DNA of 62,924 nt, filler included, from Asterionella formosa (lineage: Eukaryota), in assembly GCA_002256025.1 (NCBI GenBank). It is 16 parts of 16 records of this genome, joined end to end, with 100 filler letters (N's around TTAATTAATTAA, not from the genome) between each part and the next. Parts side by side here need not be neighbours in the genome. Positions count along the whole stretch, not along the records: positions 16,242 to 32,372 come from NKIB01005082.1; 15 more parts are not named here. One strand, written 5' to 3'. Of this stretch, positions 16,885-23,250 are shown piece by piece (the stretch's first letter is position 1; every line of letters begins with the position of its first letter). The notes under the pieces are model-generated. The model ran no database searches. It was not told where the DNA came from and worked only from the letters and a program-made list of their open reading frames with translations. A program made the translations under genes and the position numbers.

Positions 16885-16999
16885 GATTTTTTAATATATG
16901 TATATTTATATATATATGATGTATTATGCAAATGATATATGTATGTATATAATGATGATTACCGGGTTGGTTCAGTCCGAATAATAGTTGTTGTGCACA

Positions 17000-18340
17000 A
17001 TGACCATCATGCCGCTGTTGAATGCATTCCTAATTCTTGCTCTAATAGTAGTCTGCTCGAGTTCTGCCCGCGCACAAGTCCATGAGGTCCAACTGACAAC
17101 GACTCTCTCCAATCACAACGAATTTCCTCTCGTAGGTCTCGGAGTTGGAAATCTCGAACATGATTTAATTAATGACCAGATCTTCAAAGGCCTGGAAAAG
17201 CATCGAAATTATCGTTTGGTCGACACTGCTCATGCCAGCAAGAATGAACATCTCGTGCGAGACGCCATTAAATCTGGTAGCCTTCTCATATCGAAGGATG
17301 AGATTGTGCACGTAGTGACTAAAATTTGGTACACTCATCTGGGATATGAAAGGACGATGATTGCTGTCAAGGAATCCATGAGAAACCTCGACAATCCTAA
17401 CATTCGTGTGACAATTTTAATCCACTGGCCATACTGTCGCGACGATATTGTTTGGATGGATTGTGAAAAGGAAGAAGATGAACTTTCACAAGCAGTTAAA
17501 GACGCTGGTCAAGCTCCCCATCTGGACAAGGACAATGCATACAAGGAATCTTGGAGAGCTCTGGAAGACATTGTTTTGGGCAAAGCTAGCTTAGGCGACG
17601 TGGGTAAGGCCAAGCTCGAAAACATTGGATTGTCCAACTTTGAAGACAAGGAACTCAGTGAACTCCTTCAAATTGCTCGCATTAAGCCACATATACTCCA
17701 GGACAATGTGTGGAATTACATCTTTGATCCTTTTTTGATGCAACTTGTCCATGATCACAACATTCATTTCCAAGTCTACAACGTTATGGCAGGGATTCTT
17801 GAGGCTGACCAACAAAATGCGTCTCCCCGGGCCTATCAACAGCTGAAAATCCTTGCAAACAAACTAACCCAACAGAACAACGATGCTGGTTTACAGACCG
17901 AAGTCATCCATCCGTCGCAAGTGGTAATGGCATGGTTGGCGCAAAACGACGTTTCAGTCGTTGCTCGAACTTCGAACTTGTACCATCTCACTATGAATTC
18001 TCCCGCTGCCATAGCCAAGGTCCCAAAATTGACAACACGACATAACGAACAAATAAAGGCGGCGGTTGCGGCATTACTTCGCAGAGAACAAGATCTTAAA
18101 CAACCAAAAGTTAACTTCCGGAACAAGCATACCGAGGACGTGCACTTTTACTGGAAAGATATTGACAATAGAGGGAAGGAAAGTCCTGTCAGTGGTCACA
18201 TCAAACCTGGAGAAGAATGGGAGACTGACACCTATTTCGGTCATGTATTTGTGGCGTACAACGGCGACAAGTCAAAGCGCAAGGAGTTTACTATTGGTGC
18301 TTTATTCGGCGAACAAGACGGTTTCGAGATTGAGTTATAG
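17000..18340 (+). CDS. Secretory-pathway aldo-keto reductase-like protein with C-terminal VHL-beta-like domain
   Basis: Signal peptide (LLNAFLILALIVVCSSSARA); AKR motifs FPLVGLG, LVDTA, VVTKIW, LIHWP, SWRALE, NIGLSNF; C-terminal VNFRN..VHFYW..IKPGE..DTYFGHVF; ends FEIEL. Confidence 0.85.
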   Translation: MTIMPLLNAFLILALIVVCSSSARAQVHEVQLTTTLSNHNEFPLVGLGVGNLEHDLINDQIFKGLEKHRNYRLVDTAHASKNEHLVRDAIKSGSLLISKDEIVHVVTKIWYTHLGYERTMIAVKESMRNLDNPNIRVTILIHWPYCRDDIVWMDCEKEEDELSQAVKDAGQAPHLDKDNAYKESWRALEDIVLGKASLGDVGKAKLENIGLSNFEDKELSELLQIARIKPHILQDNVWNYIFDPFLMQLVHDHNIHFQVYNVMAGILEADQQNASPRAYQQLKILANKLTQQNNDAGLQTEVIHPSQVVMAWLAQNDVSVVARTSNLYHLTMNSPAAIAKVPKLTTRHNEQIKAAVAALLRREQDLKQPKVNFRNKHTEDVHFYWKDIDNRGKESPVSGHIKPGEEWETDTYFGHVFVAYNGDKSKRKEFTIGALFGEQDGFEIEL

Positions 18341-18379: not shown

Positions 18380-21162
18380 TTATGAAGGGCATAATCCGTA
18401 GAGGATCGCATGTAATCGCCTCATCGAGCTACCTTTCACATAGTGAAACGCGACGGAATGCTTTGCACAATGTTCCTTTCCAAACTTAATGTCAATCGAG
18501 TATTTAGGATACCAATCCTTACATGAGGCGGCAAATGGATCAGGCTTGCAATTGGCGGGGACTTGATAGGTAAGGTGATGACCAGGCATGAAGGGCATAT
18601 ACCTCTCCCCACCTTCTTCGTCCTTGGTGTCATATGGGTAAACGCCGAACTTTCTGAATATTTTGGCTGTCATGGTGTCTTCCGAGAATGTGTGGGCATG
18701 TGGAAAATACTGCTTGAGCCCCTTGACGACCAACGTTTTGAGAGCAGCCTTGTTTAAGGTGTAACCAGCACCACCCGAGTTAAAAATATCATTTCGATCT
18801 CCCATGTAAGAGAATCTACGACCCAAGAACAAAGGTGTCTGCTCCGTTTCATTTCCATGAGGCAAATAGATGCCGCCATTTTGTGCTACTTGAATCTCTT
18901 CACTTTCCAGGTACAAACGTAAATTCTCTACCAGCAAGTACAAATCGTCCCCACCAACATGGAACCAATCATACTTTTCATAATAGTTGTCGTAAATATA
19001 GGACCACATTGAGCGCACCTTCTGCCATATATTATTGTATTCTTCTGGACCCTCGTGCAGAATATTGACAGCTCCGATAGACTCATCCGTCTTATTGGAA
19101 CCGACCATGAAGCCATCGCATTTCTGGCCCCACGTCTCTCGTATGCCTGGGATATTGTCATGACCCTTGTCAATCGTATAGACCAAGCAGAAAATCTTGG
19201 CACGTGGCTTTCCTGTTTTGTCTGCGGCAGCATGAGATGCAATATCCACACTGACACGTTCGGTCAACATGATGTAGTGAGAATCTTTGTTTTTGCATGC
19301 GACTTCCAGGTTATCAAATTTATAAGCAGGTGGGTTCCTGAATAATGTAGTCTCGTCGAGGATATATCCGAGAACACCGTTTGCGTCTGTTGCACCCATG
19401 TGAGGATGATCCTTATGCCCTTCACTAGCATCTTCAAAGGAAATATCAATTGGCTGGGCCTTGCCAACAATATCCTGACGATCCGTCGAAAGTGGCTTGG
19501 ATGGAAGCTTGCCTTGTTCCTCACGAGGTGGAGGCAATGCGTCAGCTTCGGGCTCTTTCCCTTCAATTTGAGGTACTTCCAATGGTTTATCGGGCGCAGC
19601 CAACTCATCTATTTGAACCGCCTTTTTTTCCTTTGTAACAGCTAATTTTCCCTTTTCCGGTGCCTGGTTCGTTGATTCCATCCCCTCTGATTTTTTCTTT
19701 TCTGGTTCCTTTTTTGGTGATTCGACTAAAACGTCTTCGTCCTCCTCCACTCCACGTCCTTCCAAGCTCATATTGACTTCATTAGCGAACCAAGAAAAGG
19801 AGCGGCAACGTTTGCTCATACCGTCTGGAAAGGTCAGTCCTGATTTTGCTTCCGACATAAATGTTTCCCATTCTAATCTGGAAATCTTGGTCTTTTTCCG
19901 AATCGCACGATAGACCTTCTTTGAATATGCCTCGTCCATCCAGGCGGCGGCGAAGCGTGCCGCCATCTTGACAGAGAGCGTCGGGGGATTGATGGGAGTT
20001 TCACTGTTCACCGTTACCTCGGATAGTACATCGATGCCATCGGCGCACAGCCACAAATTTAATGACAAATCCAAATTGGCAGCCCATTCGTCAGTCAGGG
20101 CCAAATCTTGGGCAGGCAGTAAAACGTATGTTTCCAATCTCATGGCTGTGGCTTCACCGCCCACTGCTGGAGTAGGAAACGATAATCCATCCGATAAAGC
20201 CATAGCGGATGCCACAGGGTCTTCTCTGACCTGTGTAAAAGTGAAATCAAATGAAACTGCCTTGGTATCCTTAGCCCCTTCCAATCCAAAACTGACAGCA
20301 TTGGCCAATTTCATAGAAACAGTCTGGTCTTCAACACCCAACAATGGAGGAGCGACAATCAAGGCGGAAGTGACCGAAGCCAACCACTTTCGTGACTCCA
20401 AATTGGCCCCAGACTTCATAAGCAAGAGTATCAAGTCTTCTTCGGGACTTTTGAGTCCAGCCTGTTCGTGTTTCTTAGCAAGAAGGGAAATGAAATCTAC
20501 GGCATCACTCCGACTTGCTGCTATCCCCTGCTTTTCGTTCGAATTCATCAGATGAATCTTTTTTGTATGTGCTTCAACCTGCTCTTCACCTGGCTTGTGC
20601 ATGTCGGGGCGGAGGCCGTGCCAATGCGGAACAGATCCCTTGTCAATGGCTTCCAACTCTGCGGCGAGTTGTGAAGTGGAGGCGACCCCGTCCAGGACGG
20701 CGCAGACAATAAAGAGTCTATCTAGGTCTGTGTTACTGCTCGATGTCGAATGACATTGTTAGCGTTTGTTTCAGCAGTCAAGTCTCGTCAAAGCGCCGAA
20801 ATGGCAGCTCTGGTTGTATCTGAACGGAATCCTTACCTAAATACGCTCTTGACAGTACTTAAAATCTGTTTTTCGTCGTCGCCCACCACAATCACAGCCA
20901 CTCTCGGATGCGTAGGTCCATATCCCATTATATCCACTCTATCAAGAAACTTGCGAAAGGAGAGGCCCGGATTGACCACTCTCACTGGCGCACTTCCATC
21001 TGAGGTCGTGTTGGGAGGTGGCGTTGTAAAGCCGTAGTACACTAGCATAAACAAGGGCCACAAGCAGGCGATCGACAGAAGCAGACGAGACGAGTCACCG
21101 CCACCCGCTCCTGCCTTGCCATACCTTCGACGAAGATATGATGGTGCAGAGGGGGTCACCAT
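18380..21162 (-). CDS. Type II membrane glycosyltransferase fusion: degenerate GT27 (ppGalNAc-T-like) domain + GT31 core-1 beta-1,3-galactosyltransferase (C1GALT1-like); exons 21162-20837 and 20735-18380
   Basis: 101-bp intron 20736-20836 (GTAAGG...CTAAC...GCAG) splices in frame (SVF-S-NTDLDRL). GT31 motifs IFCLVYT, ETWGQKCD, WQKVRSMWSYIY, YDWFHVGGDDLY, VENLR, SGGAGY, ED, VAFHY; GT27-like motifs listed under findings. Confidence 0.85.
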
Positions 21163-21797
21163 GGTCAACAAATTGGTGGTCGTTCTTTGTAGAGCAAACA
21201 CAGAGACTCAGTCATTGTTGTCGTCAAATGAGTCGGGACTGAACTAGTTGATACCTAATGAATCAATTGACTTGCTCGACCTTGCGACGACGTCATTTCG
21301 TTCCATTCGCCTGGTCGTCTGCGCTTTCCAACTTGATATGTATCTTTCGCCACTAACGCTTCAAAGTGCATATCTGTAAATATATGTTCGGATTTTCACT
21401 CTCACAATATTCTTCGCTGCTATTTACCGGTTCAGATGTACCGAGAGGTGCTTCCAGTGTACGTAGATGGCTAAATTGATGGTCGTACATATGTATGATA
21501 TTTGTACATAGCTACACAACAACACTTCCCTTGATCTGTTCGACGAGCATGCCACAGATTGAACATCAGGGGATTCTCCACTTCTCTACATGCTCCCACG
21601 TCTGCAAGTGGAACTTCGTACCGCCACTTTGAGTTGTTTCCCCTCCGCCTTGGCCAATCTCATCAGCGCATCGTTCTCGTCATCATAGTGAGAGTACAGT
21701 ATACGGTAGTCAAACTGGTTCCGTTCCGGAGAAACATAATACGACCGAGCACCTTATTTGAGCAAACATACCGGCAGCACTGCAGCAAGCCATAGTA

Positions 21798-23250
21798 ATG
21801 CGAACGATGAGAATCTCTACGCCAGCAGCAGTCACTTCCTGCTTGCTAGTAGTGACTGCCTATCTTGGGGCTTCAGTGTCGAGTTTGTCTTTATCATGTC
21901 ATGTTCGCGCTCGACCTGGGTCTGCTCGTTCAGCCACGCCTTACTTTGCAGATGAGCAAGTAAATGTACATACTGGGACTTCGACTGGCAAAACCTCGGA
22001 CAAGACTGTCATTGTAGCTGGAGCTACTGGGTATATTGGACGAGCCGTTGTGGAAGAGTCTGTCAAGCGAGGGTACAACACCGTCGCATTGGTACGATCC
22101 AAGGCTAAACTCGAAACAAAGGAAGGGATTGCCGGTTATAGCAAAGCCTTTTCTGGCGCCACTGTCGTGGAGTGCAATGTTGAGGACCCCAGCGAGTTAA
22201 AAATACTCATGGACACGATAGATATACCCGTTGATACAGTGATCAGTTGTTTAGCATCGCCGATTGGAACAAAAAAGGAAGCATATGCCATTGATTATCA
22301 AGCCTCACTCAATTGTTTGGAGGCTGGTCAAGCTGTCAATGCTAGACACTTTGTCTTACTGTCTGCCTTTTGTTGCCGTCGACCTCTGCTTCAACTACAG
22401 CAAGCCAAACTCAAACTTGAAGCGAAGATTCAGGAACAGTCTCAATTGACCTACAGTATTGTCCGACCCACTGCCTTCTTCAAATCTGTCTCTGGTCAAC
22501 TCGAAGCGATTCAAGGTGGTAATCCATATGTATTGTTTGGAGATGGGGCCGTCACGAGATGCAATCCCATTGCCGAATGCGAATTGGCGGAGTTTATGTT
22601 GGATAGCTTGACAAATCAGGACAAGCAGAATAAGATCTTAAATGTTGGAGGACCAGATCAACCGTTGACAAATAAAATGTTGGGAATGGTACGTTGGCAT
22701 GCGACTTTTCTGGGATTGCGTCTTAATCTTGGCGACTTGAGAATTTTTATCAATAGTACGTTCGCACTCACACAAGTGTATTATTTCTTGTCTGAAACAG
22801 ATGATGTTCAAGGCCATTGGAAACCCCGAACCCAGATTTGTATATGCCCCTACATGGATCTTTGACTATATTATTAACGCGCTTCAATTCCTTGCTACTT
22901 TGACCAAGAGCCAAGCCTTGGAGGATGCAGCAGAAACAGGCCGTATTGGTAAATATTACGCCGTCGAGGATATGCTCACCACAGATCCCGCTGAAAAATA
23001 TGGAAGAATTACTATGCAAGAGCATTACAATAGCATAGCCAAGCAGGGACAAGATCCCTTTACGCCAGTCCGAGCAACTGCAGTGATTGGACAAGCATTG
23101 GAATCGTTGCCTGCCTTGTTGTTGATAGTCCCGCTTGTATGGGCCATGATGCATCCAAGGGCAATGGAAGTTGGTTTAGGGCCGGCAGCTAATCAATTTG
23201 GGTTTTCTATGACCATGATATTAGCATCACTCACAGGGCATCATGTGTGA
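21798..23250 (+). CDS. DVR: Divinyl (proto)chlorophyllide 8-vinyl reductase, NADPH-dependent BciA/PCB2 type; exons 21798-22688 and 22801-23250
   Basis: GATGYIG Rossmann motif, [61 protein letters not shown]; 112-bp phase-0 intron GTACGT...AACAG; bipartite targeting peptide. Confidence 0.9.

Follow-up and report, generated by a model that had tools for sequence, protein, structure and literature searches.

The Asterionella formosa locus described here, which lies in a window of 62,924 nucleotides (the whole stretch of DNA that was analysed), is one gene of two exons that encodes an 893-amino-acid type II (Golgi-type) diatom membrane protein. Two glycosyltransferase-type domains are joined in this one chain: an N-terminal domain (N-domain) that, as judged from sequence profiles and structural models, is a descendant of the catalytic domain of the GT27 polypeptide GalNAc-transferases (ppGalNAc-Ts), and a C-terminal GT31 domain resembling that of C1GalT1 (T-synthase). 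We favour, with a probability of roughly 0.55, the reading that the protein combines a working GT31 site with a non-catalytic, GT27-derived recognition or positioning module. The GT27-GT31 fusion has apparently not been described before; no description of it was found in the accessible text of the literature on diatom O-glycosylation, GT27 and GT31, and mucin-type enzymes, subscription journals being largely outside this coverage.

Gene model and transcript

The gene consists of the following segments.

20837..21162, minus strand: exon 1, with the ATG at 21162 (from stop-to-stop frames and sequence reading)
20736..20836, minus strand: intron of 101 nt, GT..AG (from sequence reading, RNA contigs and the spliced product in databases)
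18380..20735, minus strand: exon 2, including the stop codon at 18380-18382; residues 109 (last base) to 893

The minus strand has two stop-to-stop frames at this locus, 18380..20758 and 20833..21207. By sequence reading, the splice donor is TTTAG/GTAAGG, cut between 20837 and 20836, and the acceptor is AGCAG/TAACA, cut between 20736 and 20735. Exon 1 ends two bases into codon 109; residues 1-108, which it specifies, comprise the cytosolic tail, the signal anchor, the stem and the opening strand of the N-domain. Joining the exons by these coordinates yields 893 amino acids and a stop codon. The product shows no mismatch to the database protein P0313 (893 amino acids) and only one, K216Q, to P0003; the single type II protein of about 890 residues that the first-pass annotation had predicted after splicing is thus present in the databases in identical form.

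The intron junction proposed at the same time was confirmed by transcript data. Contigs in all four RNA runs (4/4, from three studies) skip the interval 20736-20836, the joint being 20735/20837. Furthermore, a single RNA contig of 2848 nt, running from 21335 to 18387, spans both the N-domain and the GT31 domain, and the 5' untranslated region is covered by RNA contig up to 21335.

That the locus is an artefact, either two adjacent genes mis-annotated as one or a chimeric, misassembled contig, has next to no probability. The long disordered linker between the domains could in principle conceal a gene boundary, and nothing else was found in favour of such a reading. Against it, the frame is uninterrupted from 20735 to 18383, both domains are spanned by RNA contigs in several runs, and full-length fusions are predicted in at least 10 named diatoms, from independent genomes and transcriptomes. 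Two genes or a chimera are rejected on these three grounds, as far as contigs allow.

Layout of the protein

From the N-terminus, the protein is composed of the following parts.

21025..21102, minus strand: signal anchor or transmembrane helix, residues about 21-46, with the hydrophobic core LLLSIACLWPLFMLVYYGF (from the sequence and an AlphaFold helix)
19760..20922, minus strand, with the intron inside this span: GT27-derived GT-A domain, residues 81-434 (from profile, hhalign and Foldseek)
19514..19759, minus strand: disordered linker of 82 residues, rich in Glu, Lys and Pro (from composition and a pLDDT below 50)
19196..19513, minus strand: conserved pre-GT31 segment, residues 517-622 (about 106 amino acids), confidently folded in the model
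18383..19195, minus strand: C1GalT1-like GT31 catalytic core, residues 623-893 (from phmmer and Foldseek)

A basic tail (RRRYGK) precedes the signal anchor, and the topology is type II. The helix predicted by AlphaFold at residues 32-57 of P0003 corresponds to residues 21-46 of the 893-residue protein. The pre-GT31 segment is also found in stand-alone GT31 paralogues.

The charged, proline-rich stretch that had been noticed before the GT31 domain proved to be the disordered linker listed above. Its 82 residues include 17 Glu, 12 Lys and 10 Pro but only three Ser and two Thr, and its mean pairwise identity is 17% among 22 full-length relatives. Because only five of the 82 residues are Ser or Thr, the linker was ruled out as a mucin-like acceptor.

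In the full-length AlphaFold model (pTM 0.48) the domains have no confident relative placement, so that a fixed cleft like that of B3GLCT is not indicated. A complex prediction of the N-domain with the pre-GT31 plus GT31 region scored 0.01, which counts neither for nor against docking.

GT27 ancestry of the N-terminal domain

A profile of the N-domain matched 15 distinct solved ppGalNAc-T sequences in the PDB (E 2.3e-7 to 3e-4), and hhalign aligned the domain with 20 GT27 proteins over 293 columns, with a probability of 99.6 and an E-value of 9.3e-25. The AlphaFold model of the domain is confident (pLDDT 80.9, pTM 0.84), and the Foldseek matches listed for it (ranks 1-49) are ppGalNAc-T chains only, with E-values from 1e-15 to 4.5e-12 and a TMq of about 0.6. 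The hhalign and Foldseek results thus agree with the GT27/GT-A assignment made from sequence reading. In an exhaustive profile search, 34 matches from outside the family were scanned; Glycos_transf_2 was present in 33 of them and Ricin_B_lectin in 24, and the GT60 family PF11397 in none (0/34). GT27-type proteins with ricin domains form the nearest outgroup. The names in the nearest GT27 outgroup clusters are those of one insect and one MMETSP transcript.

The ppGalNAc-T motifs were found at the positions where the first-pass annotation had placed them. The half that contains the Gal/GalNAc-T motif is recognisably homologous (WxxNLxLSxxxWxCxxG, ARxAxxWMD and CxxFxW), and the profile matches to ppGalNAc-Ts derive mainly from this motif. 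It reads W-A-A-N-L-D..NLWLCADG, where ppGalNAc-Ts have WGGENxELSFRxWxCGG; it is one residue shorter, and the first Glu is missing.

No Pfam family matched at E up to 10, whether the protein was scanned whole or as its two halves. The GT27 outgroup proteins, used as a control, score normally, which argues that both domains are too diverged for Pfam to recognise. No ricin B lectin domain was detected by Pfam anywhere in the protein, as had been noticed before; the linker and the GT31 domain come in its place.

Residues lost and kept in the N-terminal domain

The metal-binding motif of GT27 is replaced at the following position.

20408..20416, minus strand: K-S-G in place of the GT27 metal-binding D-x-H (from hhalign columns)

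In the profile-profile alignment, K-S-G falls column for column on D-x-H, just as had been read from the sequence, and D-x-H occurs in none of the 200 family sequences covered (0/200). The first position of the motif varies in the family among Q, R, E and K. It is polymorphic even within the species: the Lys codon of K-S-G carries a substitution (K216Q, 20416 T>G) in RNA run X7 and in P0003. The PCSxVGH segment, which holds the C-terminal metal-binding His of GT27, is replaced by variable sequence, and no column there has His among its six commonest residues. From the missing metal ligands (D-x-H and the C-terminal His), we infer that the N-domain is non-catalytic.

Loss of DxD or DxH is, however, no proof of inactivity, since GT-A enzymes that work without metal exist; GT14, which has no DxD, and bacterial GT6 are such enzymes (PMC7185993, available text). 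The Asp and the Arg that hhalign aligns with the 'VDD' and 'GLxxAR' positions of GT27 are retained in the N-domain. In addition, the domain has two conserved lineage-specific insertions, PHWHG...H...H and KHExxGLKSPEED, and five His in the diatom-specific insertions are invariant (H87, H89, H96, H106 and H139, alignment A1). With these invariant His and the retained Asp and Arg, a non-canonical active site would be possible.

Such a site is central to a reading in which the protein is a bifunctional enzyme: the N-domain would put the first HexNAc on Ser/Thr non-canonically, either without metal or through the His cluster, and the GT31 domain would add the second sugar, giving a core-1-like disaccharide. 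The two domains do resemble enzymes that act in succession, and the N-domain is clearly under purifying selection, since its mean pairwise identity is 45% and 16 diverse members share 63 invariant columns; the invariant His in the insertions, the GT27-type Asp and Arg, and the precedent of metal-independent GT-A families (PMC7185993, available text) are also in its favour. We nevertheless regard a bifunctional enzyme as unlikely. No member retains any of the three GT27 metal ligands, and the former Asp position varies freely, down to the polymorphism within one species. The WGGENxE region is altered and shortened by one residue, the PCSxVGH segment is replaced, and the N-domain has evolved much faster than the GT31 core, in which mean pairwise identity is 71%.

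The GT31 domain

The best solved relative of the GT31 domain is Drosophila C1GalT1 (DmC1GalT1, PDB 7q4i), which phmmer found with an E-value of 1.7e-25 and which Foldseek placed at rank 1-2 for the full-length model, with a TMt of 0.75-0.76. Both searches support the earlier description of the domain as C1GalT1-like GT31. The Pfam family Fringe remained below threshold; its best score was 20.7 bits, against a cut-off of 21 bits, in the distant relative P0168. The candidate active-site motifs are the following.

18944..18952, minus strand: G-D-D replacing the DxD of DmC1GalT1, Asp181-Asp182-Asp183 (from the alignment; residue numbers from PMC9065035)
18677..18682, minus strand: E-D of the xED motif, its Asp aligned with the catalytic base Asp255 of DmC1GalT1 (from the alignment; E805 and D806 invariant)
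18440..18445, minus strand: H-Y aligned with the C-His His324 and with Tyr325 of DmC1GalT1 (from the alignment)

The GT31 motifs had been described at first pass as intact. This is correct for the xED base (S-E-D), the G-loop (SGGAGY) and the C-His (F-H-Y), all of which align with DmC1GalT1, but not for the DxD, which reads G-D-D. In DmC1GalT1, Asp181 and Asp183 are both Mn ligands, and His324 and Tyr325 make Mn and pyrophosphate contacts (PMC9065035, available text). A Gly stands at the equivalent of Asp181 in the diatom protein, and the first Mn ligand is thus lost; the equivalents of Asp182 and Asp183 are present. G-D-D is invariant in alignment A3, and all 98 readable relatives have GGDD or AGDD, stand-alone forms included.

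Residues E805, D806, G774, G775, G777 and Y885 are invariant in alignment A3, and H884 is shared by at least 90% of the sequences. Among the 22 full-length relatives, the E-D of the base, the G-loop SGGxGY, the C-His/Tyr pair and the equivalents of Glu150, Lys158, Asp182 and Asp183 are invariant or nearly so. Five of the eight acceptor contacts of DmC1GalT1 have equivalents (Ser220, Asp255, Trp300, Tyr304 and Tyr325), the Ser220 equivalent being the residue that reads the acetamide; the other three are changed (Tyr218 to Phe, Tyr213 to Met and Arg152 to Tyr). This pattern of residues suggests that the GT31 domain is likely to be catalytically active, whereas its activity and its donor and acceptor specificity are not assured in view of G-D-D and of the replacements of Arg152 by Tyr and Tyr218 by Phe.

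It is very improbable that both domains are non-catalytic and that the protein is a lectin-like or structural component of the Golgi or cell surface. Such a role would accord with the loss of the first DxD Asp (an Mn ligand in DmC1GalT1) and with the replacement of Arg152, but the catalytic base, the G-loop, the C-His, the ribose-binding Asp and the second metal Asp are (near-)invariant, and the GT31 core, at 71% identity, is the most conserved part of the protein. G-D-D is, moreover, common to the whole diatom clade, so the stand-alone forms share it (98/98 readable). In several GT-A families, it is chiefly the last Asp of the motif that coordinates the metal.

Fused and separate forms of the modules

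The N-domain continues into a GT31 region in 116 of the 120 homologues listed, and the named fusion members among these are diatoms only, pennate as well as centric (Thalassiosira oceanica). A check of the taxonomic spread, as proposed at first pass, thus finds the fusion in both groups, and its recurrence in pennate and centric members suggests that it is under selection across diatoms. Both modules also occur separately as type II proteins, namely, as stand-alone pseudo-GT27 and as stand-alone GT31, the latter carrying the same pre-domain and G-D-D as the fused form. Fused and stand-alone GT31 proteins are found together in Nitzschia inconspicua (P0331, P0048) and in Mayamaea (P0422, P0071).

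These separate forms bear on the idea that the pseudo-GT27 domain is a built-in chaperone or scaffold, a Cosmc in cis, that stays off the substrate and that the GT31 domain needs in order to fold, dimerise, leave the ER or be retained in the Golgi. We regard this as possible but doubtful. Cosmc is itself an inactive GT-A paralogue needed by vertebrate C1GalT1 (PMC9065035, PMC7185993, available text), the N-domain is without catalytic ligands, and the separate type II modules would fit parts that are also able to cooperate in trans. However, some species with the fused form also have GT31 paralogues that stand alone and share its pre-domain and G-D-D, so that the N-domain is not an obligatory folding chaperone for the GT31 clade as a whole, whose members are presumably able to fold without it. 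Invertebrate C1GalT1 needs no chaperone (PMC9065035, available text), and Cosmc is a GT31 paralogue whereas the N-domain is GT27-like.

A historical reading may be added, although we think it improbable. The gene could be a Rosetta stone relic of a diatom ancestor that had a GT27 initiator and a T-synthase extender in one chain, the initiator having since become a glycopeptide-reading or partner-binding module, or being catalytic through a new His site. Since stand-alone pseudo-GT27 and stand-alone GT31 proteins exist, the module would in that event work in trans too, as an independent Cosmc-like system. If this were true, GT27-based mucin-type O-glycosylation would be no invention confined to animals and apicomplexans.

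Proposed function

In the favoured reading, with one working GT31 site and one recognition or positioning module, the GT31 domain would be the sole working catalytic site of the protein. It would be an inverting, UDP-sugar-dependent transferase of the C1GalT1 type and would most likely attach a hexose (probably Gal) in beta-1,3 linkage to a HexNAc alpha-linked to Ser/Thr on secreted or cell-surface glycoproteins. The N-domain, held by the flexible 82-residue tether, would bind the (glyco)peptide acceptor or position the enzyme on its substrates. By analogy, we propose for it a role comparable to that played in B3GLCT by the inactive N-terminal GT-A domain, or in GalNAc-Ts by the lectin domain. 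In the available text of PMC8724618, diatom genomes are reported to carry GT60 polypeptide alpha-GlcNAc transferases, and GT27 enzymes to be absent from protists other than apicomplexans. The GT31 domain may thus act on GlcNAc-alpha-Ser/Thr as its acceptor and not on the Tn antigen.

The retention of a GT27-derived domain in pennate and centric diatoms bears on the origin of the mucin-type O-glycosylation machinery, and the family from which the pseudo-domain comes is the one that performs the preceding step in animals. The existence of each module on its own makes the function of the pseudo-domain directly testable. In diatoms, the glycoproteins of adhesion, motility and the wall carry heavy glycosylation, and the present protein points towards an O-glycan extension step not yet characterised in these algae. 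The accessible text of the literature searched named no enzymes of O-glycosylation for these glycoproteins. A mucin-like O-glycan pathway for adhesive or mucilage proteins, as suggested at first pass, may be the setting in which the protein works.

Comparison with known glycosyltransferases

The N-domain is similar to GT27 ppGalNAc-Ts (e.g. human GalNAc-T2, PDB 2ffu/4d0z) in its GT-A fold, motif order and type II topology. It differs from them in having no D-x-H, C-terminal metal His, PCSxVGH segment or ricin B lectin domain, in its two insertions, and in that Pfam Glycos_transf_2 and Glyco_transf_7C do not score. GT60 polypeptide alpha-GlcNAc transferases, the sister family of GT27, occur in diatom genomes and are without a lectin domain, like the N-domain (PMC8724618, PMC7185993, available text), and are plausible suppliers of the acceptor sugar. 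However, GT60 keeps DxH (PMC7185993, available text), which is absent from the N-domain, and the N-domain gave no Pfam match to the GT60 model PF11397 at E up to 10.

With Drosophila C1GalT1 (PDB 7q4i), the GT31 domain shares the xED base, the G-loop, the C-His/Tyr pair and the uracil and ribose contacts. The diatom protein differs in the conserved extra segment of about 106 amino acids before the core, in an insertion of about 14 amino acids after the DxD strand, and in the fusion of its GT31 domain to another GT-A domain.

Cosmc (C1GALT1C1), likewise an inactive GT-A protein functionally coupled to a T-synthase, works in the ER as a protein of its own. It is a GT31 paralogue in which neither DxD nor xED survives. 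In contrast, the pseudo-GT27 domain is GT27-like and is covalently fused to its partner.

B3GLCT also has a GT31 catalytic domain preceded by an extra GT-A domain, which is inactive in B3GLCT and probably inactive here. In B3GLCT, the N-terminal GT-A domain is essential for acceptor binding, packs against the C-terminal domain to form a substrate cleft, and likely evolved from the enzyme's own C-terminal domain (PMC13597200, available text). The extra domain of the diatom protein is instead GT27-derived and is attached by an 82-residue disordered linker, with no fixed arrangement predicted. If it is inactive, as its lost metal ligands suggest, the diatom protein would be the third, independent case, after Cosmc and B3GLCT, of an inactive GT-A domain recruited to a GT31 enzyme.

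Gene structure and transcripts

The gene is encoded on the minus strand (18380..21162) in two open frames, at 20833-21207 and 18380-20758. The donor (TTTAG/GTAAGG) and acceptor (AGCAG/TAACA) sequences define a canonical 101-nt intron at 20836-20736, exactly the junction predicted in the first-pass annotation; the splice sites and RNA contigs agree on it. The joint 20735/20837 was found in a contig of each of four RNA runs (4/4) from three studies, comprising metatranscriptomes (lake and freshwater) together with one poly-A library. One contig of 2848 nt extends from the 5' UTR (21335) to 18387 and covers both the N-terminal and the GT31 domain, as expected from the single transcript proposed earlier. 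Because this RNA evidence consists of assembled contigs, it is informative on presence and connectivity and not on expression level. Joining the two exons by their coordinates gives 893 residues, which match a database protein of equal length (P0313) throughout and differ from another (P0003) at a single position, K216Q. That the gene is an artefact is extremely improbable.

Two genes flank it on the plus strand. An aldo/keto reductase family gene at 16997-18337 (Pfam PF00248, E 3.3e-15), whose product has a hydrophobic N-terminal leader and a C-terminal extension of ~90 aa, is convergent with the glycosyltransferase gene, the stop codons being ~40 nt apart. A divergent gene at 21762-22700 encodes an NmrA-like/atypical short-chain dehydrogenase, NAD(P)-binding (PF13460, E 5.6e-19), and its frame runs on past ~22700 into an apparent intron.

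Protein layout

The type II product is organized as follows:

residues 1-20: basic cytosolic tail
residues about 21-46: signal anchor
up to residue about 80: stem, low confidence
residues 81-434: N-terminal GT-A domain
residues 435-516: disordered linker
residues 517-622 (window 19196-19513, minus strand): pre-GT31 segment, conserved and confidently folded
residues 623-893: GT31 core

The 82 linker residues (pLDDT <50) include E 17, K 12 and P 10, and only five Ser/Thr. The full-length AlphaFold model has a pTM of 0.48, and the N-terminal and GT31 domains are therefore not confidently placed relative to each other. The pre-GT31 segment (~106 residues; consensus ...KPIDIxFVDVSxGHKEHPHMGAxDExGxxGYIHDETALRxNPP...), ahead of the core, lies outside the phmmer alignment to Drosophila core 1 galactosyltransferase (DmC1GalT1) and is confined to this diatom GT31 clade.

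Ancestry of the N-terminal domain

No Pfam family was recognised anywhere in the 893-aa protein. A profile built from 16 diverse family members (alignment A1) matched 15 distinct solved ppGalNAc-T sequences in the PDB (E 2.3e-7 to 3e-4) and, at E <0.001, no other glycosyltransferase family; these matches fall on the Gal/GalNAc-T-motif half of the domain. An hhalign comparison of this profile with 20 GT27 proteins extended over 293 columns, covering the whole catalytic domain (probability 99.6, E 9.3e-25). The AlphaFold model of the domain (pLDDT 80.9, pTM 0.84) retrieved only ppGalNAc-T chains among the Foldseek matches listed (E 1e-15 to 4.5e-12, TMq about 0.6). In an exhaustive profile search, 293 of 1.84 billion representatives reached E 0.001 or lower. 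Below the family were 40 longer non-family matches, of which 34 were scanned with Pfam, three were left out and three were family fragments; Glycos_transf_2 was present in 33 of the 34 and Ricin_B_lectin in 24, and the GT60 model PF11397 in none. A language-model atlas, taken as a lead only, placed chordate GT27 fragments first (0.95). The PDB profile, hhalign, AlphaFold/Foldseek and exhaustive searches establish that the domain is GT27-derived, in line with the identity first proposed from its motifs.

Loss of the metal site

GT27 FLDsHcE aligns with LLMKSGA, so that D-x-H becomes K-S-G (window 20416-20408), a replacement noted at first reading and now seen column by column in hhalign. The segment bearing the GT27 C-His (PCSrVGH) aligns with variable sequence. 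The D-x-H site is covered in 200 of the 236 family sequences that were aligned to the profile, and none of these 200 retains it: the first position is Q in 87, R in 46, E in 29 and K in 27, and the third is G in 159 and D in 38. The former Asp position is polymorphic within the species, K216Q (20416 T>G) occurring in RNA run X7 and also in P0003. Run X7 has three more non-synonymous variants, all in the disordered linker (P453L, L445F and E442K; window 19704, 19727 and 19738), and three synonymous ones, one shared with runs X1 and X2.

Despite the lost metal site, the domain is constrained, judging from 63 invariant columns in A1 and a mean pairwise identity of 45% among 22 full-length relatives. 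Conserved positions include an Asp and an Arg that pair with VDD and GLxxAR of GT27, and two lineage-specific insertions carry invariant His (PHWHG...H...H and KHE..GLKSPEED). Loss of the DxD-type motif is strong but not absolute evidence that the domain would be inactive; the available text of a GT-A fold survey (PMC7185993) describes families that work without metal and notes that the C-His has been lost repeatedly. It is unlikely, though conceivable, that the protein is bifunctional, its N-terminal domain still initiating as a non-canonical active enzyme.

GT31 core

Drosophila C1GalT1 (7q4i) was the best phmmer match in the PDB (E 1.7e-25), with chondroitin synthase 3 and B3GLCT far behind, and it ranked first in Foldseek with the full-length model (TMt 0.75-0.76, 26% identity). 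We mapped the active-site residues of DmC1GalT1, as given in the available text of PMC9065035, onto the phmmer alignment (chain index plus 72). The base Asp255 (S-E-D), G-loop (SGGAGY), C-His His324 with Tyr325 (F-H-Y), Glu150, Lys158, Asp182 and Asp183, and the acceptor contacts Ser220, Trp300 and Tyr304 are kept, whereas Asp181 is replaced by Gly, Arg152 by Tyr, Tyr218 by Phe and Tyr213 by Met. The first-pass description of intact GT31 motifs thus holds for the base, G-loop and C-His but not for the DxD, which reads G-D-D. The kept residues and G-D-D are invariant or nearly so across the 22 full-length relatives, and GGDD or AGDD occurs in all 98 readable GT31 relatives (22 of 120 were too short or unmatched by the pattern). 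We consider the domain to be probably active, because no other part of the protein is as well conserved (71% mean pairwise identity) and because it keeps the base, second metal Asp and C-His; that both domains are inactive appears very unlikely.

Tyr218 of the fly enzyme hydrogen-bonds the axial OH4 of GalNAc, according to the same portion of PMC9065035. The invariant Phe in its place, combined with the kept acetamide-reading Ser, would be compatible with a HexNAc acceptor other than GalNAc. GlcNAc-alpha-Ser/Thr is a reasonable candidate, since diatoms are among the protists with GT60 pp-alpha-GlcNAc transferases and, apart from apicomplexans, protists lack GT27 enzymes, as far as the available text of PMC8724618 states.

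Distribution of the fusion and its modules

A word-indexed search with the N-terminal domain found 168 proteins. Among the best 120 of these, 116 reach the GT31 region and about 20 contain all of it; most other listed homologues end near residue 69 of the C-terminal query segment (PPAYKFDN-to-end), just past ...IRETWG and ~seven residues into the core. This common end point probably arises because gene callers cut the models short at an intron on metagenome contigs, and suggests an intron position conserved in other diatoms and missing from the present gene. All matches with an organism name, a minority, are diatoms: Nitzschia inconspicua, Nitzschia sp., Seminavis robusta, Mayamaea pseudoterrestris, Cylindrotheca fusiformis, C. 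closterium, Grammatophora oceanica, Pseudo-nitzschia (Psemu1), Bacillariaceae MAGs and the centric Thalassiosira oceanica; the true range may be wider. The database labels are 'hypothetical' or 'N-acetylgalactosaminide beta-1,3-galactosyltransferase', and every label omits the N-terminal domain.

Both modules also occur separately. Four representative clusters (P0156, P0160, P0165 and P0177) comprise type II proteins, about 600-675 aa long, with the pseudo-GT27 domain (R-P-D at the DxH place) and no GT31. In many other type II proteins, about 420-500 aa long, only the pre-GT31 segment and GT31 core are present; stand-alone paralogues of this kind (P0331, P0422, P0325, P0329, P0392 and others), from diatom species that also carry the fused gene, have a TM anchor and a GGDD core. 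Fused and stand-alone forms coexist in N. inconspicua (P0048 and P0331) and Mayamaea (P0071 and P0422). P0331 is very similar to fused P0048 in its N-terminus and anchor, which suggests that P0331 may have lost the N-terminal domain from a fused ancestor. The existence of stand-alone GT31 paralogues weakens the idea of a Cosmc-like chaperone or scaffold acting in cis, which we regard as rather unlikely, though less so than bifunctionality.

Proposed function and comparison with known systems

In the reading that we favor, with a probability of roughly 0.55, the GT31 domain would be the sole working site, extending HexNAc-O-Ser/Thr, and the tethered pseudo-GT27 domain would bind or position (glyco)protein acceptors. 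The architecture is not described in the literature searched, whose coverage is incomplete. Its evolutionary interest is that a domain of GT27 type has become fixed across diatoms, joined to one of T-synthase type. Cosmc, cited as a pseudo-GT scaffold in the available text of the GT-A survey (PMC7185993), and B3GLCT are known cases of an inactive GT-A domain that serves a GT31 enzyme. In contrast to B3GLCT, the extra domain of the diatom protein is of different origin and is carried on a flexible tether, with no fixed cleft.
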